Shown piece after piece: positions 6,465 to 59,966 of a stretch of DNA of 64,000 bases. A program made the translations under genes and the position numbers. The stretch's first letter is position 1; each line of letters opens with the position of its first letter. The notes beneath the pieces were generated by a model, which saw only the letters and a program-made list of their open reading frames with translations, ran no database searches and was not told the DNA's origin. The stretch lies in sequence record OQ599310, one strand, 5' to 3'. Source of the stretch: Escherichia phage 55.

Positions 6465-6725
6465 ATGAAAAAATTAGCAATCGGTTTATTCGCAGTAATG
6501 ATGGCATTCTCTGTTGGTGCTACCACAGGAGCTGGTGGTAACCAGTCTTCTGGGCCTTCCAACGGTTCGGTAAATGCATCACATTCTCAGGGTATTGAGA
6601 ATATCAAATCAAGCTATATTAATAGCACGGCCGGACAAGCAACTGAAGCATGGTCAAAGGGTCGAGTAGTTACACGCTCCGTATTCTGTGATATGCCTAA
6701 TTATGTTGCTAAGTGTGATAAGTAA
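6465..6725 (+). CDS. small secreted Gly/Ser-rich protein
   Basis: signal peptide MKKLAIGLFAVMMAFSVGA; preceded by late-promoter motif. Confidence 0.6.
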   Translation: MKKLAIGLFAVMMAFSVGATTGAGGNQSSGPSNGSVNASHSQGIENIKSSYINSTAGQATEAWSKGRVVTRSVFCDMPNYVAKCDK

Positions 6726-23873: not shown

Positions 23874-25558
23874 AATCATTTAAATTAAATCGTGTTCGTT
23901 ATCAAAACATCATGTCGGTAGGTGGGAATCCTATTGATATCCAATTAGATAAAGTCCAAAAGACCTTAATCACTGGTAAAAACGGCGGTGGTAAATCTAC
24001 GATGTTAGAAGCCATCACTTTCGGACTTTTCGGTAAACCATTTCGTGATGTTAAGAAAGGACAAATCATTAATAGCACGAACAAGAAAGAGCTCTTAGTT
24101 GAGCTTTGGATGGAATTCGATGATAAAAAATACTTCATTAAACGAGGCCAAAAGCCCAATATTTTCGAAATCTCCGTTGACGGTGTTCGTCTTGATGAAT
24201 CTGCCAGCAGTCGTGACTTCCAAGAAGAATTTGAACGTAGCATCGGAATGTCATACGCGTCTTTTAAACAGATCGTTGTGCTTGGGACGGCAGGGTATAC
24301 CCCTTTCATGGCTCTTAGCACCCCTGCTCGCAGAAAGCTTGTCGAAGACTTATTAGAAGTTGGAACACTAGCTGAAATGGATAAAATCAATAAGTCTCAA
24401 GTTCGAGAACTTAATTCACAGGGACAAGTTCTCGATGCCAAGAAAGATGGTATTATCCAACAAATTAAGATTTATAACGAGAATATCGAACGTCAAAAGA
24501 AATTATCTGGCGATAATGTAGCGCGTCTACAGAATATGTATGACGACCTAGCCAAAGAAGCTCGTTCATTAAAAGCAGAAATTGAAGAAGCTAACGAGCG
24601 TCTACTTAATATCGTTCTTGACGAAGACCCTACTGAGGCATTCAACAAGATCGGACAAGAAGCATTATTGATTAAATCTAAAATTGACTCATATAACAAA
24701 GTTATTAAGATGTATCATGATGGCGGTACATGTCCTACTTGTGCATCACAGTTGCACCAGGGTGATCCTATTGTCTCTAAGATTACCGATAAGCTTCATG
24801 AATGTAATCACTCATTCGAGCAACTTACCTGTCACAGAGATAATCTGAGTGTCCTAGTGGACGAATATAGAGCTAATGTTAAGACTAAACAGGACCTTGC
24901 ATCTGATATTCGTACCAAGAAACAAGCAATGATTGCCACTATTGATAAAGCTAAGAAAGTTAAAGCTGCAATAGAACAAGCCTCGGCGGAATTTATCGAC
25001 CATGCCGATGAGATAGCTTTGCTTCAAAAAGAACTTGATAAAATCATTAAAACAAAATCGGATATCGTTCTTGAAAAATACCATCGTGGTATTATCACAG
25101 ATATGTTAAAAGATTCTGGTATTAAAGGTGCTATCATTAAAAAATATGTGCCTCTGTTCAACAAGCAGATTAATCATTACCTTAAAATCATGGAAGCTGA
25201 TTACGTGTTTTCTATTGATGAAGAATTCAATGAATCTATAAAATCACGTGGTCGTGAAGATTTTAGTTATGCTTCATTTAGTCAAGGTGAAAAGGCACGT
25301 ATCGATATCGCATTGTTGTTTACATGGCGAGATATTGCTGAAAAAGTTTCTGGTGTTAAAATCAACACGTTGATTCTTGATGAGGTTTTTGACGGCGCTG
25401 TAGATTCTGAAGCTGTTAAGGCTATAGATACCATTCTTGGAAGTTTACAAAATACTAACGTGTTCATTATCTCTCATCGAGACCATGACCCTCAACGTTA
25501 TGGACAACATCTTCAGATGAGTAAAGTTGGACGATTTACTGTAATGACTGTTTCATAA
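23870..25558 (+). CDS. 46: recombination ATPase gp46 (Rad50/SbcC-like)
   Basis: 562 aa; Walker A GKNGGGKST; central coiled coil with CxxC hook-like CPTC; C-terminal ILDEVFDG D-loop. Confidence 0.9.
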   Translation: MKSFKLNRVRYQNIMSVGGNPIDIQLDKVQKTLITGKNGGGKSTMLEAITFGLFGKPFRDVKKGQIINSTNKKELLVELWMEFDDKKYFIKRGQKPNIFEISVDGVRLDESASSRDFQEEFERSIGMSYASFKQIVVLGTAGYTPFMALSTPARRKLVEDLLEVGTLAEMDKINKSQVRELNSQGQVLDAKKDGIIQQIKIYNENIERQKKLSGDNVARLQNMYDDLAKEARSLKAEIEEANERLLNIVLDEDPTEAFNKIGQEALLIKSKIDSYNKVIKMYHDGGTCPTCASQLHQGDPIVSKITDKLHECNHSFEQLTCHRDNLSVLVDEYRANVKTKQDLASDIRTKKQAMIATIDKAKKVKAAIEQASAEFIDHADEIALLQKELDKIIKTKSDIVLEKYHRGIITDMLKDSGIKGAIIKKYVPLFNKQINHYLKIMEADYVFSIDEEFNESIKSRGREDFSYASFSQGEKARIDIALLFTWRDIAEKVSGVKINTLILDEVFDGAVDSEAVKAIDTILGSLQNTNVFIISHRDHDPQRYGQHLQMSKVGRFTVMTVS

Positions 25559-25584
25559 ACGCTTTAACACGATGTGGTTATAAT
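25558..25584 (+). promoter_or_regulatory. middle promoter (MotA-box-like GCTTTA + TATAAT)
   Basis: aacGCTTTA 25558..25566, 12-nt gap, TATAAT 25579..25584; ATGTGGT/ACCACAT inverted repeat around the -10. Confidence 0.45.
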
Positions 25585-25612
25585 GACCACATCAAATTAA
25601 ATGGAGAACAAC

Positions 25613-25801
25613 ATGGAGTATTCAACCGGACAACATCTTCTTGTTGTCCCTGAAATTAAAAAATATGTTTTGACCAATACGTTTTCAGGTGAAGAACATA
25701 TTGTTACTGAACAAATGCTCAAATCTGCTTTTAAAGATGAGTATAATAAAATAATGTCTAATCGCAATTCCGCATGGACAGTTACTGACTTCTACGAATA
25801 A
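25613..25801 (+). CDS. hypothetical small protein (45.2-like)
   Basis: GGAGAA RBS before ATG 25613. Confidence 0.5.
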   Translation: MEYSTGQHLLVVPEIKKYVLTNTFSGEEHIVTEQMLKSAFKDEYNKIMSNRNSAWTVTDFYE

Positions 25802-25813
25802 GAGAGAAATAAT

Positions 25814-26230
25814 ATGTTTACTACTGCTAAAGGTTTCACTGCTGCTGATCTGAAAGTTACTTCTATCCGTACTGACGCTAACCCGCATAACCATAATCGT
25901 GTTCGTAAAGCATGGGTCCTGCATTGTGATGACGCAAGTGCTAAAAAGCTTCAATCTTTGCCACAAGAAACTCGTTTTATGATTTATGGTTTTATTGATA
26001 ACGATGTATCTGATATGTGGATTCATCTGATGCGTAAGCACTATAAAGATTCTATTGAAGCTGGCGGAAAAATCGTTCTTGATAAAGACGGTTCTGAGCG
26101 TCTAGAAGATTTCTACTGTGTTGATGCCGACGAACAACTAATTGCAGCTGGCGAAATTGTTGCTTCTAAAATTCCAGAATATATTGAATCACTGCCTGAA
26201 GCTATTAAAAAGCAGATGGTTGCTGCATAA
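25814..26230 (+). CDS. rpbA: RNA polymerase-binding protein RpbA-like
   Basis: 138 aa directly upstream of gene 45, as in T4; assignment by position and size. Confidence 0.45.
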   Translation: MFTTAKGFTAADLKVTSIRTDANPHNHNRVRKAWVLHCDDASAKKLQSLPQETRFMIYGFIDNDVSDMWIHLMRKHYKDSIEAGGKIVLDKDGSERLEDFYCVDADEQLIAAGEIVASKIPEYIESLPEAIKKQMVAA

Positions 26231-31766: not shown

Positions 31767-32402
31767 ATGAAAACTACTCCTATTACTATCGCTATTGACG
31801 CAATTATAAAACAAGCTTCTTCTTTGGCCGCTATGGCCAAAGTAATTAGTCAAAACCCTGCTCGTTATAATGCTATTCTAGAAACTCTTCGACGCCCAGG
31901 ACTTAGCAATTATGAAAGCCGAGTAATTATTACAGGTGTTGGTAAGAATGCTAATATTGCAACTAAAGCTTCTGAGACATTTGCTTCACTCGGTATCCCA
32001 AGTATGTACTTGAACACCGGGCATTATTCTCACGGTGATGCAGGATTCATTGCGCCTAATGATGTGTTGATTCATATTAGTCGTTCTGGTAAAACTGAAG
32101 AAATGATAGGCGTGGCTAAGCATCTTAAAATGATTCGACCGAACGTCAAACAGATTCTGTTGCATTGTAACCCAGACATTCCACAAGAAAATGAAGCCCT
32201 TTTTGATTACTCTTTCTGTACAGGCATCGCGGTAGAGGTTGATGAGAATTCTCTGGCTCCGACCATGTCCACTACATTGTTGTTAGCGCTTATCGATACG
32301 TTTGCTATCAACCTTTCGTCTGAACGTGGATTTACCTCTAATGACTTCCTTAAGTTCCATCCAGGCGGTGCACTAGGTGCCATGTTACGAGGCGAGCAAT
32401 GA
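31767..32402 (+). CDS. single-domain SIS sugar-phosphate isomerase, D-arabinose-5-phosphate isomerase-like (KdsD/GutQ family)
   Basis: ITGVGKNANIATKASETFASLGIPS...HGDAGFI...ISRSGKTEE...LAPTMSTT...FHPGGALG tracks the KdsD SIS domain motifs. Confidence 0.7.
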   Translation: MKTTPITIAIDAIIKQASSLAAMAKVISQNPARYNAILETLRRPGLSNYESRVIITGVGKNANIATKASETFASLGIPSMYLNTGHYSHGDAGFIAPNDVLIHISRSGKTEEMIGVAKHLKMIRPNVKQILLHCNPDIPQENEALFDYSFCTGIAVEVDENSLAPTMSTTLLLALIDTFAINLSSERGFTSNDFLKFHPGGALGAMLRGEQ

Positions 32403-32583: not shown

Positions 32584-34269
32584 ATGAAAAAAGCTGTTAT
32601 TCTTGGTGCTGGATTAGCAACTCGTTTATATCCAATTACTCACCATATTCCTAAGGTGCTTGTTAACTATAAACAAGACACTATTCTGAGCAATTTGTAT
32701 ACAATTTATTCTGACCTTGGCGCAGATGAAATTATTGTAGTAGTTCATTCAAAATTTGCTGAAACTGTTCGAGCTTATTGTGAGCAAGAAGGGTTCAATG
32801 TGACTATTCGTACAGTTGATGAAGCGTATGGATCTGCTTATGCTCTTGCTAAATTACACAAAGATTTAGACGGCCATAATGTAATTGTTAACTGGTGTGA
32901 TATTATTCCTGATTTTGGTTCATGGTCTTGGAATGTCAACGCAATCTATGTTAAGGGTGATGAATGTCGATATAATTTCGACGGTGAAAATATCACTAAC
33001 GTAGGTTCAACAGGCGGTAATGTTGTAGGAATTTATCAGTTCAAAGACTGGGAATTCTATATGGGTTCTACCGATGAGGAAATTCATGAATACTGCAAAG
33101 GACGTGATTTCGTAGAATTCCTTTACAGCGGCGCATTCAATAAATCAGAGCTTATGAATATAATTGATTTAGGTGATATGCCTAAACTTGAAAAAGCTCA
33201 TGAAGTTCGTGAACTTAATCGTAGTTTTAATGCAGTTGAAATTGGTGAAGAAACTGTAACTAAATTCGCATTAACCGAACAGGGACGAGCTCTTCAGAAA
33301 GATGAGATTTCATGGTATTTGAAAGTGAAATCAGATTCAGTTCCTCAGTTAGTTTCTGTTAATGAAAACAATTTTGAAATGGAACGTATTAAAGGTAAGC
33401 CGGCATTTGAATATATTAAATCCAAATCAAGTCTTGCTCGTCCACAAATTGTTGATGCAATTTTAGATGCACTGAAATTCAGCACAGACACGTATTTTGT
33501 AAGTCCTGAAACTGTTCGTCGTGATTTCACTAAAGAATTCTATACGAAAGTTATTGATCGTTGTGAAAGCATTCAACCATTGATTGATTCATTTGGTAAA
33601 ATCACACATGTGAACTACACTAAGATTGGACGTCTGAAGCCAATGTTGAAACAAGCTTTAGAACATCTTATTCGTTATCATAACCGTTCTCAGGGACAGT
33701 ACTCTGTTATTCATGGTGACCCGAACTTCAGTAATACTATGATTACTGATAACGGCGAAGTCAAGTTTATCGACCCTCGTGGATATTTTGGCGAAACCAA
33801 GATTTACGGGCCAAAATTGTATGACGAAGCTAAAGTGCTTTATGCTGTTTCAGGTTATGATGAATTCAATGCTAATCCGACCTGGGGACAGTTTACTATT
33901 GATGAAACAACTTGTAATGTGACTATTAACATCAATCCATTAATTTACAAATATGGAAAGATGAGTTCGTTTAACGAGTATCATCATTTGGCGGTGGCAA
34001 TTATCTGGATTGCATTAGGTGGTTATTTCAAGAATAATCCACTTAAAGCGGTAGCCGCATATTATAAAGGTATGGAACTTCTGACTAAGCAATTACGTAA
34101 CATGGGCCGTGTACTTCAAGACGGCTCTATTAGTTATGACGTAGCAGAACCTGTAACGGCTACTCTGATTACAAAAAATCCTGGTAAATGGGTACTAACT
34201 GATAAAGAAACTGGTGTTTCCTATCGTCCAATCGGTGGCGATATCACTCACCAATGGGAACGAATCTAA
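32584..34269 (+). CDS. bifunctional sugar-1-phosphate nucleotidyltransferase / sugar kinase
   Basis: N-terminus AVILGAGLATRLYPIT (sugar nucleotidyltransferase G-x-G-x-R-L motif); C-terminus HGDPNFSN...IDPRG (APH/choline-kinase-like catalytic loop). Confidence 0.65.
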   Translation: MKKAVILGAGLATRLYPITHHIPKVLVNYKQDTILSNLYTIYSDLGADEIIVVVHSKFAETVRAYCEQEGFNVTIRTVDEAYGSAYALAKLHKDLDGHNVIVNWCDIIPDFGSWSWNVNAIYVKGDECRYNFDGENITNVGSTGGNVVGIYQFKDWEFYMGSTDEEIHEYCKGRDFVEFLYSGAFNKSELMNIIDLGDMPKLEKAHEVRELNRSFNAVEIGEETVTKFALTEQGRALQKDEISWYLKVKSDSVPQLVSVNENNFEMERIKGKPAFEYIKSKSSLARPQIVDAILDALKFSTDTYFVSPETVRRDFTKEFYTKVIDRCESIQPLIDSFGKITHVNYTKIGRLKPMLKQALEHLIRYHNRSQGQYSVIHGDPNFSNTMITDNGEVKFIDPRGYFGETKIYGPKLYDEAKVLYAVSGYDEFNANPTWGQFTIDETTCNVTININPLIYKYGKMSSFNEYHHLAVAIIWIALGGYFKNNPLKAVAAYYKGMELLTKQLRNMGRVLQDGSISYDVAEPVTATLITKNPGKWVLTDKETGVSYRPIGGDITHQWERI

Positions 34270-34655
34270 TGCACCGTGTAGAAAACATGCTTAATCTTTG
34301 TTTTGATGTCGATGATTGTATAACAGAGTGGAATAACAATCGTGATTACGTGAACTTCAAACCAGACGTCGAAATGGTGTCTGCCATTAATGCCTTGTAT
34401 GATGCAGGGCATACCATAACGCTTTACACTGCTCGCGGTATGAAGTCAGTAGGTCCCGGTCGTATAGCAATTGACATTCTCCCGAGTCTGATTCAGAACT
34501 TGGAAAACATTGGCTTGAAGTACCATAATTTGCTAACACATAAACCAGTATATGATTGGATTATCGACGACAAAGCTATGCGTCCTGACGAATTCAAAGC
34601 TCTTATGAATAAAGGCGAATTCGAAACATTTAAATCATATAAACCGAATCTATAA
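34269..34655 (+). CDS. HAD-superfamily phosphatase
   Basis: motif I FDVDDCIT, motif II TLYTAR, motif III K (LTHKP), motif IV WIIDD; TAATG-coupled start. Confidence 0.6.
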   Translation: MHRVENMLNLCFDVDDCITEWNNNRDYVNFKPDVEMVSAINALYDAGHTITLYTARGMKSVGPGRIAIDILPSLIQNLENIGLKYHNLLTHKPVYDWIIDDKAMRPDEFKALMNKGEFETFKSYKPNL

Positions 34656-34709: not shown

Positions 34710-35870
34710 ATGAACACTTTTAAAATCGGAACGAATTTTGATTTAGCTCTTCTTGATAAAATCGTAGAGCTCAATAAAACCTATCCTAATAGCTTGATAA
34801 ACGAAGTATATGGCTCTACAAGAGAAATGGCTTTTGTAGCAGCCAGACCTGATTTTAGGCTTCCTGACGTTGACAAAAAGATGTTAGAAGACTACGTTAA
34901 ACGTTGTAACGAATTAGGTATTTGCTTTAACTATACACTCAACACGATAAATCCTGGTTCAAAAAGAGAACTAGTTGAGTGGAAGAAGAAAGCTATTCAG
35001 GATTATGTTCAGTATCTTTGGTCAATAGGCGTATGGCGTATTACTATCGCTAACCCTGTTGTTATGGAAATTGTTCGTGAAGTCAATAAAGATATTGAGA
35101 TTGAAGTTTCAACAATTCTACATGTCGATGCTGTAACTCAAATCAAATACTTGCACGACCAATATAACATCAAAAAAGTCTGTTGCGGAATTCATAAGAA
35201 CCGTTCAGTTTCTTTCCTGAAGCGTGCAGCAGAGTTTTGCAATAAGAACAATATAATATTTGAAGTTCTTGTAAATGAGTTCTGTTCTAATGCTGGTAAA
35301 GGGTATACAACACATTGTAGTTATCGTGACTCTTGCTATATTTTCCATAGTACTGATGTTACCGCTGATGATGCTAAATCCTTAAATGGATATCCAATGC
35401 AGCACTGTATTAAAGCTCGTGATACAGATCCATTTAACTGGTTGAGAACTCGTTTTGTTCGTCCTCAAGATTTGAAACTTTATAATGATATTGGTATCAC
35501 TCAATTCAAAGTTTCAGGACGTACAGGTAGCACAGACTACATTTTGAAAGTTCTTGAAGCATACGCTTCTGAAAAGTTTGAAGGTAATTTGTTAGAACTG
35601 TGGAAGCCTTTAGAGACTATTTTCACTCTTGAAAACGAAACTGAGTTTTCACATACAGTAAATATTGAAACCTCTTTGTTAGATGGCTTTTTAGAAAAAA
35701 GGTGGTTCAGACATCCAGATTTTGATTGTGCTAATGAAATCTGTGGGTCAACGTGTACATATTGTGAAAGGTATTATAAACGTCAATTATCTAAAAACGG
35801 GTTAGCAGAAAACTCCATATCTATTATTGATATAACTAGCTCTGATGACGCTTTGAGATACCCGGAATGA
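34710..35870 (+). CDS. hypothetical enzyme with C-terminal Cys cluster (possible metal/Fe-S site)
   Basis: 386 aa; C-x4-C-x3-C-x2-C (CANEICGSTCTYC) near C-terminus plus internal Cys cluster; no confident family assignment. Confidence 0.55.
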   Translation: MNTFKIGTNFDLALLDKIVELNKTYPNSLINEVYGSTREMAFVAARPDFRLPDVDKKMLEDYVKRCNELGICFNYTLNTINPGSKRELVEWKKKAIQDYVQYLWSIGVWRITIANPVVMEIVREVNKDIEIEVSTILHVDAVTQIKYLHDQYNIKKVCCGIHKNRSVSFLKRAAEFCNKNNIIFEVLVNEFCSNAGKGYTTHCSYRDSCYIFHSTDVTADDAKSLNGYPMQHCIKARDTDPFNWLRTRFVRPQDLKLYNDIGITQFKVSGRTGSTDYILKVLEAYASEKFEGNLLELWKPLETIFTLENETEFSHTVNIETSLLDGFLEKRWFRHPDFDCANEICGSTCTYCERYYKRQLSKNGLAENSISIIDITSSDDALRYPE

Positions 35871-36106
35871 TTTCTAGAAAAAGTTTTAATTATAAACTTA
35901 ACGAAGAGATTTTGACTATGAAACTGAACACTAACGAACAAATTCTTAAAAAGGCCCTTATGGGCCTGTTTGAAACCAAAGCGGCTAAAGTGATTAAAGA
36001 ACCTGTTCAATTGGAATACTACACTGATGCATTCCTTCATAGTGTTCTTGGAAGTATAGATTCTGAAGCTTTACGTTATATCAACATTGCCAAGAAATTC
36101 AAATAA
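35867..36106 (+). CDS. hypothetical small protein
   Basis: ATGA-coupled ORF; alternative internal ATG at 35918. Confidence 0.45.
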   Translation: MISRKSFNYKLNEEILTMKLNTNEQILKKALMGLFETKAAKVIKEPVQLEYYTDAFLHSVLGSIDSEALRYINIAKKFK

Positions 36107-36148: not shown

Positions 36149-36865
36149 ATGGGAAAACATAACACAATGAAATATATCAAAGCCGCAGATTTTCAAACCG
36201 CATTTAAAGCAGTCAATCGTGAAATTTTAGAAAACCCGGAATTCGTAACCGATTCTCGTATTGGACGTTGTAATGAAATTGGGTCTATGACAGTAGTTGT
36301 TGACAATCCATCATCATTCAAAATGACCGACCCACGTATTAACCGCATCTCTTATGAATATGCCGAAGACTTCTGGAAGTTTATGATTTCTGGTGGTACT
36401 GATGCAGAAGAAGCGTTTAAGGCATATCCTAATGTCGCTAAATTTATTTCTAAACCTAAATCAGACGCTTTGCCTGCAAACTTCAACACTTTCTACGGTC
36501 CTCGCATTGCGGCCCAATTACCAGCTCTTCTAAAAGAACTTAAAGAGAAACCTAACTCTCGAAGAGTTGTGTTCCAAATTCTAGAAAGTTCTGATCAGGC
36601 TTTGCTTGATTCGGACGAAACACTTGAATATCCATGTACTGACTCAGTAACTTATTATATTCGTGATGGTAAGCTTTATACCCACTGCCATATGCGTTCT
36701 CAGAACTGTGCTGTTGTTATGCAGTTGGATTTTTATCTCCAAGGAAAATTACTTCATTATATCGCTAACGAATGCGGTGTAGAAGTTGGTGATTATACTC
36801 ATACCATGGTAAGTGCCCATGTGTTTGAACGTGATTTTGATTATGTTAAAGGATTCCTTGACTAA
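36149..36865 (+). CDS. 42: dCMP hydroxymethylase (thymidylate-synthase fold)
   Basis: KPNSRRVVFQI and PCTDSVTYYIRDGKLYTHCHMRSQNCAVV align with T4 gp42 NPDSRRGIMIY / MCTNTVQYLIRD...NMRSNDVV as recalled; N-terminus divergent. Confidence 0.75.
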   Translation: MGKHNTMKYIKAADFQTAFKAVNREILENPEFVTDSRIGRCNEIGSMTVVVDNPSSFKMTDPRINRISYEYAEDFWKFMISGGTDAEEAFKAYPNVAKFISKPKSDALPANFNTFYGPRIAAQLPALLKELKEKPNSRRVVFQILESSDQALLDSDETLEYPCTDSVTYYIRDGKLYTHCHMRSQNCAVVMQLDFYLQGKLLHYIANECGVEVGDYTHTMVSAHVFERDFDYVKGFLD

Positions 36866-37764
36866 TGGCTATTTTCCGCGTACCAATCTTGAGTATGCGG
36901 TCTTATGAAACTGGACAGTATGCTATCCTTAAGGATGGCAACTTCCAACTTCATTTGCACCGTGCTAATCCAGGTGATGTGATTACATATCCACGTAATG
37001 CATCTGATATTAAAGAATGCGAACGTCTTTTCCCAGAATTTAAGTTTGTTCCATTATGGTATAAAGATAACGCGTATAACACTCGTAAATATTTCTGGTC
37101 TGAAAATGAATTTGTGGTTGATTCATTAATTGCTTATTATGATTGTGATTTTCTAATCACAGATATCACCGGATATGACGGCGCTTTTGATGTTGAATTC
37201 AATTTCAATATCACTGCAGACCCTAATAAACCACGTTTTTATATTGACGAATTCTTAAAAACCGATATGTTGTCGGTTAATCGTTCACTTCAAACTACTG
37301 TGTTGAATGAACGTCAAAAAGAAGTGCTGGTTAACGCAGGTGCAGATGGTAATAAGATTATCGTAACGCAGAAAGTTATACGTCCTTCCATCATGCAGCG
37401 TCTTGTAGGTGATTTGGCCCCTATTCATCTAGATGGTATTTTTCATCCATTTCGAATTAGTGACCCATGCTATCGTTTTGAACAAGTGGTTGAATGTGCA
37501 ATTCAATTAGGTCAACCGCTTTATATAACCGATCCAAATAATAGTTTCGACAGAAATAAGTATCCTGAAGAAGCGCTGATTCGAATTTTTAAACCAACTA
37601 AAACTGAGTACTATCAAATTCTTAAAGGACGACCGAAGATTCAATATTTCGAAAATCCTGAAGAAGTATTCCATCCAGGTCTTGGCGAGTTCATCTACTT
37701 TAATGCTTTAATTTCTTCGCCGTATAATATACCTAAATACGAAGATGTCGTAATCGAGGAATAA
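36865..37764 (+). CDS. hypothetical protein (299 aa) at the T4 beta-gt locus
   Basis: TAATG-coupled to gene 42; no family motif recognised; not similar to T4 beta-gt as recalled. Confidence 0.6.
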   Translation: MAIFRVPILSMRSYETGQYAILKDGNFQLHLHRANPGDVITYPRNASDIKECERLFPEFKFVPLWYKDNAYNTRKYFWSENEFVVDSLIAYYDCDFLITDITGYDGAFDVEFNFNITADPNKPRFYIDEFLKTDMLSVNRSLQTTVLNERQKEVLVNAGADGNKIIVTQKVIRPSIMQRLVGDLAPIHLDGIFHPFRISDPCYRFEQVVECAIQLGQPLYITDPNNSFDRNKYPEEALIRIFKPTKTEYYQILKGRPKIQYFENPEEVFHPGLGEFIYFNALISSPYNIPKYEDVVIEE

Positions 37765-37765
37765 A

Positions 37766-38314
37766 ATGGCTAAAATTATTTTAGTAGATGGCCCAGATAA
37801 TGCCGGTAAAACAACTTTCATTAATGACATAATGGAAATTAGTGAAAGATACGTAAAGATTGATTTCCCTAAACGAACAGTTGATGGACGTTTCGATGTT
37901 AAGTCTCGAAATGAAGTTGGTTGTTTCGAAACGATGTTGAATTATTTAGACCCTACTAAGATTTATCTGTTAGACCGTGGATATATTAGTAACTGGGTTT
38001 ATGGACGTATTCGACAAGATGCGGACTCTGTTCTTGATGTTTATGAGCAGGATTATGTTCGTCTTTGCCAAAACCATGATGTGTTCACAATTATTTTAAC
38101 ACGTAACGAAATGACTGAAAGTTTTGAAGACGACCTTATTACTTTGTCTTCATTCGGTTTTAATACAGTCATTTCACATTTTGAAGAGTTTGCAATTCAT
38201 AACAAAATCCAAACGTATCAATTACTTAATCATGATGGTGCTAACAAAGTTATAGGATTTAATGCAAGCGAACGTAATGGTTTGATTATAGAAATCATCA
38301 AATGGGCTCGTTAA
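37766..38314 (+). CDS. P-loop kinase-like protein
   Basis: ILVDGPDNAGKTTF Walker A near N-terminus, typical of small (d)NMP/nucleoside kinases. Confidence 0.5.
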   Translation: MAKIILVDGPDNAGKTTFINDIMEISERYVKIDFPKRTVDGRFDVKSRNEVGCFETMLNYLDPTKIYLLDRGYISNWVYGRIRQDADSVLDVYEQDYVRLCQNHDVFTIILTRNEMTESFEDDLITLSSFGFNTVISHFEEFAIHNKIQTYQLLNHDGANKVIGFNASERNGLIIEIIKWAR

Positions 38315-38412: not shown

Positions 38413-39585
38413 ATGTCTGATTTAAAATCTCGTCTGATTAAAGCTTCTACTTCTAAAATGACTGCAGACTTGACTAAGTCTAAGCTGTTTAATAATCGTG
38501 ATGAAGTCCCTACTCGTATTCCGATGTTGAATATCGCACTAGGTGGTGCTCTGAATGCAGGATTGCAATCAGGCTTGACTATTTTTGCTGCACCTTCTAA
38601 ACATTTTAAAACATTGTTTGGACTAACTATGGTTGCAGCGTATATGAAGAAATATAAAGATGCAATCTGTTTGTTCTATGACTCAGAATTTGGTGCTTCA
38701 GAATCTTATTTTCGTTCAATGGGTGTTGATTTAGACCGTGTAGTTCATACACCAATTCAGTCCGTCGAACAACTTAAAGTTGATATGACTAATCAGCTTG
38801 ACGCGATTGAACGCGGTGATAAAGTTATTATCTTTATCGATTCAATCGGTAATACTGCATCTAAGAAAGAAACCGAAGATGCATTGAACGAGAAAGTCGT
38901 AGGTGATATGTCTCGTGCTAAGGCACTTAAATCTCTGTTCCGTATTGTGACCCCGTATCTGACTATTAAAGATATTCCATGTGTTGCAATTAACCATACA
39001 GCAATGGAAATCGGCGGACTATATCCTAAAGAGATTATGGGTGGTGGTACAGGTATTCTTTACTCTGCTAACACTGTATTCTTTATCTCTAAACGTCAGG
39101 TTAAAGAAGGTACAGAATTGACCGGTTATGACTTCACGTTGAAAGCAGAAAAATCTCGTACAGTTAAAGAAAAATCTACTTTCCCAATCACAGTTAATTT
39201 TGATGGTGGTATCGACCCATTCAGTGGCTTGTTAGAAATGGCAACTGAAATTGGATTTGTTGTTAAGCCTAAAGCCGGGTGGTACGCTCGCGAATTCCTT
39301 GACGAAGAAACAGGCGAAATGATTCGTGAAGAGAAATCGTGGCGTGCTAAAGCTACTGATTGTGTAGAATTCTGGGGACCTTTGTTTAAACACAAACCTT
39401 TCAGAGATGCAATTGAAACTAAATATAAACTAGGTGCTATCTCTTCTATTAAAGAAGTTGATGACGCTGTTAACGACCTTATTAATTGCAAAGCAACAAC
39501 TAAAGTTCCTGTTAAAGCTTCTGATGCTCCGTCTGCAGCAGATATTGAAAACGACCTTGACGAAATGGAAGATTTCGATGAATAA
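38413..39585 (+). CDS. uvsX: RecA-like recombinase UvsX
   Basis: 390 aa; MSDLKSRLIKASTSK...; matches T4 UvsX as recalled. Confidence 0.95.
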   Translation: MSDLKSRLIKASTSKMTADLTKSKLFNNRDEVPTRIPMLNIALGGALNAGLQSGLTIFAAPSKHFKTLFGLTMVAAYMKKYKDAICLFYDSEFGASESYFRSMGVDLDRVVHTPIQSVEQLKVDMTNQLDAIERGDKVIIFIDSIGNTASKKETEDALNEKVVGDMSRAKALKSLFRIVTPYLTIKDIPCVAINHTAMEIGGLYPKEIMGGGTGILYSANTVFFISKRQVKEGTELTGYDFTLKAEKSRTVKEKSTFPITVNFDGGIDPFSGLLEMATEIGFVVKPKAGWYAREFLDEETGEMIREEKSWRAKATDCVEFWGPLFKHKPFRDAIETKYKLGAISSIKEVDDAVNDLINCKATTKVPVKASDAPSAADIENDLDEMEDFDE

Positions 39586-58865: not shown

Positions 58866-59966
58866 ATGAAAGTTATGTTTATCCCATCTCGTGCAGTCCC
58901 ATTTAATCCTGACCGTGTACAAGGTGGTCTTGAAGCAGTACATTTAAATGTGTTGAAATATTTAGTTTCTATCGGTGCCGATATTGATTATATTGGTTTT
59001 GATAATGACACATTTGGTGATTGGAAGGTTAATCATCATCCTGTTGGTCATCTGACTAAATTCAGTCTAGGTATGAGTTATACTATGGCTCGTAAGATTG
59101 TTGAACTAGCCGGCATCCATGAATACGATTTTGTTGTTACTATGGAACCGACTAAACTAACCGTTCAGGCAATTAAAGACGCAGGTCTCTCTAAAGTTCA
59201 TAAGAATTTTATGGCAACACCATTTGAACCGGTATCTCGTGGCATTGTTCAAATTTGGGACCAGACTATTCAAATTCATAAGAACGGTGGTAAGAGTTAT
59301 GCTCCTACTAAAGCCTTCCGTGAATTTGAACGTAAATATTGTTATATGACTTCAGGTCTGACTGACAAAATTGATTATGATTATTGGCGAGCAAATCCGT
59401 TGTTTGAAGCCGAAGATTATCCGGTTATTTGTTTGAATGAGAAACCTGAAGTTCTTCCGGCGACTGATCTGATTATTAGTGCACAACGTTATGACACTAA
59501 AATGCGTCGTACTGATGTTGCTCTTGAAGCGATTAAAGCACTAGGCGAAAATGGTGCAGGATACTGTCCTAGTAAATGGGCACCACCAGCTAAATATCCT
59601 GTTATTATTGATGCTCCACACAGTGAAATTATGGAACGTCTTAAAACAGCTAAAGCACTTATTAATACGTGTCCTGACACAGGTACGGTAGAGAATAGTT
59701 CTATTGAAGCCATCTCTAAAGGTGTCCCTGTAATCCAGCTAGTTTTTAAGGATTATCCTCATGCGACATTTGAATACGACCCAGATACTGTGCGTGTAGA
59801 AATTGATTCCTCTACTCCTAAGAAAGAAGTAGTTGCGCTTTACACAAAAGCTGTATTAGAATTCACTGACACATACGAAGCTCGAGTTAAACGTGCTGAA
59901 GCAGTATGGAAGAAGTATAACCGAGATGCGGTTGTTGCGATGTGGGATAAAATCTTCACAGCGTAA
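58866..59966 (+). CDS. GT-B-fold (GT4-like) glycosyltransferase; candidate DNA hydroxymethylcytosine glycosyl(arabinosyl)transferase
   Basis: N-terminal GGLEAVHLNVLKYLVSIG and C-terminal E-x7-E-like ENSSIEAISKGVPVI; sits where T4 has gene 60/mobA; no alpha-/beta-gt homolog elsewhere in the window. Confidence 0.5.
   Translation: MKVMFIPSRAVPFNPDRVQGGLEAVHLNVLKYLVSIGADIDYIGFDNDTFGDWKVNHHPVGHLTKFSLGMSYTMARKIVELAGIHEYDFVVTMEPTKLTVQAIKDAGLSKVHKNFMATPFEPVSRGIVQIWDQTIQIHKNGGKSYAPTKAFREFERKYCYMTSGLTDKIDYDYWRANPLFEAEDYPVICLNEKPEVLPATDLIISAQRYDTKMRRTDVALEAIKALGENGAGYCPSKWAPPAKYPVIIDAPHSEIMERLKTAKALINTCPDTGTVENSSIEAISKGVPVIQLVFKDYPHATFEYDPDTVRVEIDSSTPKKEVVALYTKAVLEFTDTYEARVKRAEAVWKKYNRDAVVAMWDKIFTA

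Follow-up and report, generated by a model that had tools for sequence, protein, structure and literature searches.

Two genes at the beta-glucosyltransferase position of Escherichia phage 55 probably belong to an arabinosyl-5-hydroxycytosine DNA modification module

What do two genes of Escherichia phage 55 do at the position where phage T4 encodes beta-glucosyltransferase (beta-gt)? In the sequence record of this phage (OQ599310), of which we analyzed a stretch of 64,000 nucleotides (the window), open reading frames (ORFs) encoding 299 and 182 amino acids (aa) lie between a "gene 42" and uvsX, the same genomic slot as the gp42–beta-gt–uvsX locus of T4. The original prediction, made from the letters alone, described them as unassigned genes with a role in modified-nucleotide metabolism, downstream of a hydroxymethylase. 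That interpretation is partly supported: both ORFs exist as claimed (Table 1), and they are rightly tied to DNA-base modification in which glycosylation is involved. We propose that they are the distal genes of the arabinosyl-5-hydroxycytosine module of RB69/HY126-like Mosigvirus phages, an explanation that, taken as a whole, we regard as probable though well short of certain. In this explanation the 299-aa protein is a predicted GT-B glycosyltransferase and the 182-aa protein is most likely a kinase of 5-hydroxydeoxycytidine monophosphate (5-hydroxy-dCMP). This locus is already known: it was published in 2025–2026 with putative roles for the two proteins, each of which Lee et al. 2026 provisionally assign (PMC13326640), so "unassigned" no longer describes them. 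What is new here is the comparative data on the role of the kinase, namely the size of its family, its co-occurrence with the transferase, its neighborhoods, and its contrast with the DNA kinase 5-HMUDK.

A 2.25-kb stretch of this locus is 98.3% identical to RB69 (NC_004928, positions 23961–26213) and to about 150 other Mosigvirus genomes. By tblastn searches of 50,697 phage records we found full-length homologs of the 299-aa gene in 340 of the 348 records with a match, and homologs of the 182-aa gene in 343 records; across genera, identity falls to approximately 37–45% for both genes. Because of this full-length conservation in about 340 phage genomes, we take both ORFs to be real genes and not chance reading frames. 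In the RB69 reference the 299-aa gene is split into ORF047c and ORF046c by a 1-nucleotide (nt) length difference (positions 6717–7617 of L001, the RB69 locus in our comparison set), which Lee et al. 2026 ascribe to sequencing error (PMC13326640). The NC_004928 reference also divides a second cluster gene, into ORF053c and ORF052c (L001 2434–4120); the window and nearly all relatives have each of the two genes as one ORF. The two genes are packed tightly behind their upstream neighbor. The stop codon of the 238-aa gene overlaps the start of the 299-aa gene in the sequence TAATG (36863–36867), the stop codon of the 299-aa gene (TAA, 37762–37764) is one base away from the ATG of the kinase gene at 37766, and a GAGGA sequence lies 6–10 nt upstream of that ATG. 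Base composition is even throughout the region of the two ORFs. A scan for promoters and terminators between 31500 and 38600 gave site counts equal to the shuffled expectation, so we judged transcription units solely from overlapping or abutting codons.

The product of "gene 42" had been taken for a deoxycytidine monophosphate (dCMP) hydroxymethylase, and 5-hydroxymethyl-dCMP (hm-dCMP) had been suggested as a substrate of the kinase. Instead, the 238-aa protein matches PDB entries 9iqc/9ir2 over its full length and is near-identical to them (E = 2.4e-161), and a MAFFT alignment shows that it keeps the E143/C146/N169/D177 signature (E. coli ThyA numbering) of 5-hydroxy-dCMP (5hodCMP) synthase. 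Judged by these sequence features it is a flavin/O2-dependent 5-hydroxy-dCMP synthase, like RB69 gp48, whose flavin-associated, O2-dependent activity has been shown (PMC13326640), and because it makes 5-hydroxy-dCMP, hm-dCMP is not a relevant substrate. Lee et al. 2026 found mono-, di- or tri-arabinosylated 5-hydroxycytosine (5hoC), and not arabinosyl-5-hydroxymethylcytosine, in the DNA of RB69 and Acinetobacter phage DLP3 (PMC13326640), and arabinosylated 5-hydroxycytosine has been shown in virion DNA for RB69, DLP3 and Mosigvirus NP. From the 98% nucleotide identity, the DNA of phage 55 is expected to contain arabinosylated 5-hydroxycytosine too. Several GenBank records label the homolog of the 238-aa protein 'dCMP hydroxymethylase', or the homolog of the 299-aa protein 'RNA polymerase binding protein', and both labels look like propagated misannotations.

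For the 299-aa protein, we found no useful match in Pfam or NCBIfam, or in phmmer and profile searches of PDB, and no membership by sequence of a curated glycosyltransferase (GT) family such as Pfam Glycos_transf_1 or Glyco_trans_4. It belongs to PHROG 3891, which has no assigned function. The earlier statement that it has no recognizable motif therefore stands for sequence and fails for structure: structure prediction, which had been suggested as a check, resolved what sequence methods had not, giving two Rossmann-like alpha/beta domains separated by an inter-domain cleft, which is the GT-B fold. On this model the protein is a GT-B glycosyltransferase. An N-terminal SMRS loop, a KDGN motif and several Arg and Tyr residues are invariant in its family, as are FPFR197, K246 and H270-P271-G272 in the C-terminal half, where E275 is mostly conserved; the C-terminal residues (R197, K246, H270-P271-G272 and E275) may correspond to those that bind the donor in a GT-B enzyme. 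Lee et al. 2026 list RB69 gp46:47, DLP3 gp79 and Thanatos TH1_063 as putative alpha-arabinosyltransferase 1 (PMC13326640), and apart from being intact, the gene in the window differs in nothing material from gp46:47. It had been proposed to carry out a second glycosylation step. It is instead probably the first, base-proximal transferase, putatively, and the likely second one is the 366-aa transferase that is encoded elsewhere in the window, which has no Pfam match and is near-identical to PDB 9iqz/9ir0, 'phage HY126 glycosyltransferase' (E = 7.8e-250). The two families show no detectable relation in sequence (hhalign probability 0.3), so these transferases are not sequence-detectable paralogs.

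The 182-aa protein begins with MAKIILVDGPDNAGKTTF and has the Walker A motif GPDNAGKTT at residues 9–17, as originally described, and it was correctly recognized as a small P-loop nucleotide-kinase-like protein. It has a nucleoside monophosphate (NMP) kinase alpha/beta fold that is most similar to thymidylate kinases (TMPKs), it matches PHROG 761, "thymidylate kinase" (E = 8e-45), and its RB69 counterpart ORF045c is annotated "thymidylate kinase". Lee et al. 2026 name RB69 gp45, DLP3 gp78 and RL38J1 gp214 'nucleotide kinase' (PMC13326640). The TMPK motifs are present as G9-P-D11-N-A-G14-K15-T-T, F34-P-K-R37, D70-R71-G and the lid Arg R113, and residues D11, G14, K15, D70, R71 and R113 (the last just after strand 4) are kept even in relatives that are only 23–30% identical. 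In an hhalign comparison of the family with human TMPK (its sequence entered by hand), the segment from the P-loop to FPxR aligned with a probability of 93.6. Characterized TMPKs hold their acceptor through two of these residues: the P-loop Asp touches its free 3'-OH, and the arginine of the DR motif touches its phosphate. The retained D11 and DR features therefore point to a free deoxynucleoside monophosphate (dNMP) as the acceptor of the 182-aa kinase. Relative to canonical thymidylate kinases (PF02223; vaccinia 2v54 and human TMPK), it is about 30 residues shorter, carries Asn where they have Arg as the second P-loop residue, and has invariant motifs of its own (GRF, RNEV..FETML and F-DDLI). 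The family is small: a profile search of 1.84 billion representative proteins gave 317 clusters (E <= 1e-3), of which 45 had E <= 1e-10.

The distribution and neighborhoods of this kinase family bear on its substrate. Kinase and transferase have near-identical distributions among the phage records (343 and 348, respectively), with equal counts in Escherichia (176 and 176), Acinetobacter (57 and 57), Shigella (15 and 15), Enterobacter (9 and 9), Proteus (7 and 7) and Yersinia (6 and 6). Rhizobium was not among the ten commonest genera listed for the window kinase, and two homologs of the 299-aa transferase, used as queries, matched 13 and 6 Rhizobium phage records. The order thymidylate synthase (TS) homolog–GT–kinase is found in 14 of 16 Straboviridae loci (L001–L016), the others being L003, which is too short to include the TS gene, and L013, an exception to which we return below. 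The same order occurs in DLP3 and in Thanatos, whose TH1_064 matches the kinase family with an hhalign E-value of 8e-49. It is also found in two distant phage contigs from metagenomes, 356 kb and 169 kb long (L019 and L020), in which the kinase is about 31% identical, its gene overlaps the end of the GT gene, and the TS homolog has the 5hodCMP-synthase signature. Judging from record coordinates, the kinase gene is apparently upstream of the TS–GT pair in Dhakavirus and about 2 kb from the GT gene in Klebsiella phage Marfa. Two distant members of the kinase family (L017 and L018) are in clusters without any transferase; these clusters encode MazG-like pyrophosphatases and dCMP-type TS homologs (D177 but D169), and L017 also has a dCMP deaminase, which is the classic gene set for full replacement of deoxycytidine by a C5-modified deoxycytidine. 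Because the family occurs in phage modification clusters beside dCMP-type TS homologs, its acceptor is probably a C5-modified dCMP and not thymidine monophosphate (dTMP), and the label "thymidylate kinase" probably names the wrong substrate. The best-supported reading, we infer, is that the kinase travels with dCMP-modifying TS homologs and phosphorylates their product, here 5-hydroxy-dCMP.

Table 1. Features of the modification locus and related genes in the window.
Feature	Coordinates	Strand	Assignment and evidence
211-aa SIS-domain protein (RB69 gp55)	31767-32402	+	Putative arabinose-5-phosphate isomerase; Pfam SIS E 1e-10; RB69 annotation; role proposed in PMC13326640
561-aa bifunctional protein (RB69 gp53:52; AfhE-like)	32584-34269	+	Sugar-1-phosphate nucleotidyltransferase + APH-like kinase; makes UDP-arabinose
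133-aa HAD-like phosphatase (RB69 gp51; AfhF-like)	34254-34655	+	PHROG 1238; PMC13326640
386-aa U32-family protein (RB69 gp50)	34710-35870	+	Within cluster; Pfam Peptidase_U32 E 7e-11
79-aa ORF (RB69 ORF049c)	35867-36106	+	Within cluster; PHROG 8601
238-aa thymidylate-synthase homolog	36149-36865	+	5-hydroxy-dCMP synthase; Pfam Thymidylat_synt E 2.4e-15
299-aa ORF, ATG start (RB69 gp46:47, DLP3 gp79, Thanatos TH1_063 family)	36865-37764	+	GT-B-fold glycosyltransferase; putative first alpha-arabinofuranosyltransferase on 5-hydroxycytosine
182-aa ORF, ATG start (RB69 gp45, DLP3 gp78, Thanatos TH1_064)	37766-38314	+	Thymidylate-kinase-fold P-loop kinase; putative 5-hydroxy-dCMP kinase
UvsX	38413-39585		Pfam T4_UVSX_C E 1.1e-38
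366-aa GT-B glycosyltransferase (RB69 ORF003c / gp3 type)	58866-59966	+	Outside cluster; proposed second arabinosyltransferase

The rest of the cluster, which matches RB69 gp55–gp49, includes the putative enzymes for supplying uridine diphosphate (UDP)-arabinose: the SIS isomerase, the bifunctional nucleotidyltransferase/kinase, and the HAD phosphatase. The bifunctional protein matches Pfam NTP_transferase (E = 8e-10) and, weakly, the APH and fructosamine-kinase families, and the HAD-like protein has a sub-threshold match to NCBIfam TIGR01689 (E = 1.9e-13). Lee et al., citing He et al. 2026, credit the HY126 orthologs AfhE and AfhF with UDP-arabinose synthesis (PMC13326640); the GenBank record of HY126 itself carries no functional names. 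Phosphorylation of a pentose, which had been suggested as an activity to assay in the 182-aa kinase, is already covered by the upstream bifunctional enzyme. The 79-aa ORF overlaps the stop codon of the U32 gene and has homologs only in loci L001, L002, L006, L010 and L012. In the pathway that we propose, the 238-aa TS homolog would hydroxylate dCMP to 5-hydroxy-dCMP, as shown elsewhere for the RB69 and HY126 orthologs, and the 182-aa kinase would convert this to the diphosphate, which host nucleoside diphosphate kinase and the phage polymerase would then carry into DNA. The upstream isomerase, bifunctional kinase/uridylyltransferase and phosphatase would supply UDP-arabinofuranose. The 299-aa GT-B protein would attach an alpha-linked arabinose, the first, to the 5-OH group of 5-hydroxycytosine that most probably is already part of DNA, as suggested by the fold and synteny of the protein and by the mono-arabinosylated phage Thanatos, and a second arabinose would then be added by the unrelated 366-aa GT-B enzyme. 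The parts of this scheme that we infer are the substrate of the kinase and the donor, acceptor and order of action of the 299-aa transferase.

Several observations weigh against this scheme. When DLP3 transferases, reportedly with gp79 among them, were assayed one at a time, none arabinosylated DNA containing 5hoC from UDP-arabinofuranose (UDP-Araf) or UDP-arabinopyranose (UDP-Arap) (PMC13326640), and in the accessible literature, which does not extend to He et al. 2026 and Mahler et al. 2025, we found no biochemical test of the 299-aa or 182-aa proteins. RB69 gp159, a dNMP kinase of the T4 gp1 type, turns 5hodCMP into 5hodCDP, and together with gp48 it is enough to place 5hoC in E. coli DNA (PMC13326640). 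Since gp159 already carries out this reaction, the 182-aa kinase is either redundant or does something else. Its assignment to the TMPKs has gaps as well: it scores 15.9 bits against TIGR00041, below the cut-off of 83.25; PF02223 (Thymidylate_kin) is not reported for it and is matched weakly by 12 of 18 family members (best E = 2e-4); and no alignment to TMPK reached its base-binding residues, as the hhalign comparisons with the human and E. coli proteins (both entered by hand) ended after FPxR or the P-loop. The exceptional locus mentioned above is that of Morganella phage MP1 (NC_031020), in which a kinase that is 54% identical lies between pol and uvsX (L013 5995–6525; L022 20500–21030), and neither a TS nor a GT gene occurs at that place or elsewhere in the first 50 kb; the related phage Rgz1 does have the GT gene. 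Finally, in some close relatives (P0179, P0180 and P0185) the kinase is joined to an HhH-GPD glycosylase-like domain, which hints at action at the DNA level. A parsimonious explanation of the redundancy with gp159 would be that phages without a gp1-type kinase can rely on the TS–GT–kinase module alone, and that T4-like phages took it up as a unit.

A different explanation would give the second kinase a job of its own. If the 299-aa transferase arabinosylated the mononucleotide 5-hydroxy-dCMP, the 182-aa kinase could be dedicated to the bulky arabinosyl-5-hydroxy-dCMP, on which the gp1-type kinase would be unable to act, and the polymerase would incorporate a glycosylated deoxynucleoside triphosphate. 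This would be pre-replicative glycosylation of a DNA base, the first known case. The inactivity of single transferases on 5hoC DNA is in keeping with it, as is the lack of an obvious unique job for a second kinase where a gp1-type kinase covers 5hodCMP, and the data of Lee et al. do not separate mononucleotide from DNA as the acceptor of the first arabinose (PMC13326640). So is the adjacency or overlap of the GT and kinase genes in Mosigvirus, the Acinetobacter phages, Thanatos and the contigs L019 and L020. The 299-aa family is also acidic (median isoelectric point 5.1, net charge approximately −10) compared with the DNA-acting DLP3 proteins gp76 (7.2) and gp77 (5.7), a weak point that does not discriminate because gp77 too is acidic. 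Against these stand the L017 and L018 clusters, where the kinase family sits beside dCMP-type TS homologs without any transferase, and the separation of the kinase and GT genes in Dhakavirus and Marfa. Moreover, all phage DNA glycosylations characterized so far are post-replicative, including the third arabinose of DLP3, which is added on DNA (PMC13326640). The transferase-less clusters and the variable gene order thus disfavor a pre-replicative route, and we think it unlikely.

It is quite unlikely, too, that the 182-aa protein is an ordinary dTMP kinase or a broad dNMP kinase that happens to lie in a plastic region and has nothing specific to do with modification. Its fold and its database labels do say thymidylate kinase, and MP1 retains it without a neighboring TS or GT gene, but the phage records that contain it are essentially confined to those with the 299-aa transferase, and its score as a dTMP-kinase equivalog is far under the cut-off. 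T4-like phages, in addition, already phosphorylate dTMP with gp1.

The HhH-GPD fusions raised the idea that the 182-aa protein works on DNA as a base kinase of the 5-HMUDK type, which would phosphorylate the hydroxyl of the modified base, or of its sugar, within DNA. We rejected this as the primary interpretation after comparison with phage M6 gp54, the sole validated 5-HMUDK that we compared; M6 gp56 is unrelated. There are real likenesses: both are small phage P-loop kinases encoded near TS homologs, and the fusions, two of which rank relatively high in the kinase family (P0179, E = 4e-19; P0180, E = 1e-18), recall the pairing of 5-HMUDK with HhH-like transferases such as aGPT-Pplase in thymidine hypermodification, alongside AADT (PMC8989533). 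One fusion gene (L024 7001–8074; JAXOUH010003483.1) lies between a TS homolog with the 5hodCMP-synthase signature and genes for a flavin mononucleotide (FMN) reductase, a SIS protein and an AfhE-like enzyme. There is no homolog of the 299-aa transferase within the 12-kb stretch read, where the contig ends, and the HhH domain might be a replacement of the GT-B transferase in this cluster. However, M6 gp54 aligns weakly with the kinase family (hhalign probability 82.5, over 85 N-terminal columns), has Asn in place of the P-loop Asp (D11) and FE in place of D70-R71, and has no equivalent of R113. It acts on DNA, whereas the 182-aa kinase keeps the motifs that bind a free nucleotide, as do the HhH-GPD fusion proteins themselves. 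The abstract of Lee et al. (PMC13326640) reports no phosphate on virion nucleosides of RB69 or DLP3, and on chemical grounds a phosphate on the phenol-like 5-OH should be an unworkable leaving group for substitution. A DNA-level kinase is accordingly very improbable.

Equally hard to credit is the reading of the 299-aa protein as a UDP-pentose pyrophosphorylase (sugar-1-phosphate uridylyltransferase) that makes the donor, as claimed for Thanatos TH1_063, which when purified and supplied with uridine triphosphate and xylose-1-phosphate gave UDP-xylose by liquid chromatography–tandem mass spectrometry and no transfer to plasmid DNA, dCMP, dCTP or cytosine (PMC12838424): the name is at odds with the GT-B fold of this protein (L021 5995–6897), the cluster already has a true nucleotidyltransferase domain (TH1_060 in Thanatos), and the acceptors used were without a 5-OH group. 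The UDP-xylose result would indicate that the protein handles a UDP-pentose, rather than what its physiological function is.

The module that we propose shares a common logic with that of T4: both start from a TS-family enzyme whose product is a C5-oxygenated dCMP, rely on a kinase to pass this product on to replication, and use a GT-B enzyme to add the sugar of a UDP-sugar to the hydroxyl. They differ in that oxygenation is by flavin/O2 hydroxylation in the window and by folate-dependent hydroxymethylation in T4, and in that the sugar in the window, unlike in T4, would be arabinofuranose from phage-encoded enzymes. The 299-aa transferase is smaller than the T4 alpha- and beta-glucosyltransferases and has no sequence relation to them, and the extra TMPK-like kinase is without counterpart in T4. 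Some distant versions of the module have a gene for a flavin protein adjoining the TS-like hydroxylase or the kinase (L020 4715–5275, Flavodoxin_2; L024 8068–8613, FMN_red), which fits a requirement for reduced flavin. Among the scanned ORFs of the window cluster, Pfam detected neither a flavin-reductase nor a flavodoxin domain.

The U32 protein of the cluster is far more conserved than its neighbors. It has 221 phage homologs, all at least 80% identical, including one in Shewanella phage Thanatos-2 that is 82% identical (the Thanatos-1 transferase and kinase are 47.5% and 43% identical, respectively), and among these 221 phage records there is none from the Acinetobacter phages that have the rest of the module. 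A CX4CX3CX2C motif is present at its C-terminus. The U32 family contains O2-independent hydroxylases, among them RlhA (which makes 5-hydroxycytidine, ho5C, in ribosomal RNA), TrhP and UbiU/V. By analogy with these family members, the U32 protein could allow phages of facultative anaerobes to make 5-hydroxycytosine under anaerobic conditions. In Lee et al. its sole description is 'sugar or heterocycle reductase' (PMC13326640).

For annotation, the product of Mosigvirus-type "gene 42" should be changed from a hydroxymethylase to a hydroxylase, and homologs of the 299-aa protein that are now recorded as "hypothetical protein" or "RNA polymerase binding protein" should be annotated as glycosyltransferases. 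Mono- and di-arabinosyl-5-hydroxycytosine is a recently recognized DNA hypermodification, and arabinosyl-5-hydroxycytosine has been reported to protect against many restriction enzymes, the Brig1 glycosylase and some CRISPR systems. The locus poses two testable questions about how it is made: why these phages have a further nucleotide kinase tied to the module, and at which level, DNA or nucleotide, the first sugar is attached.

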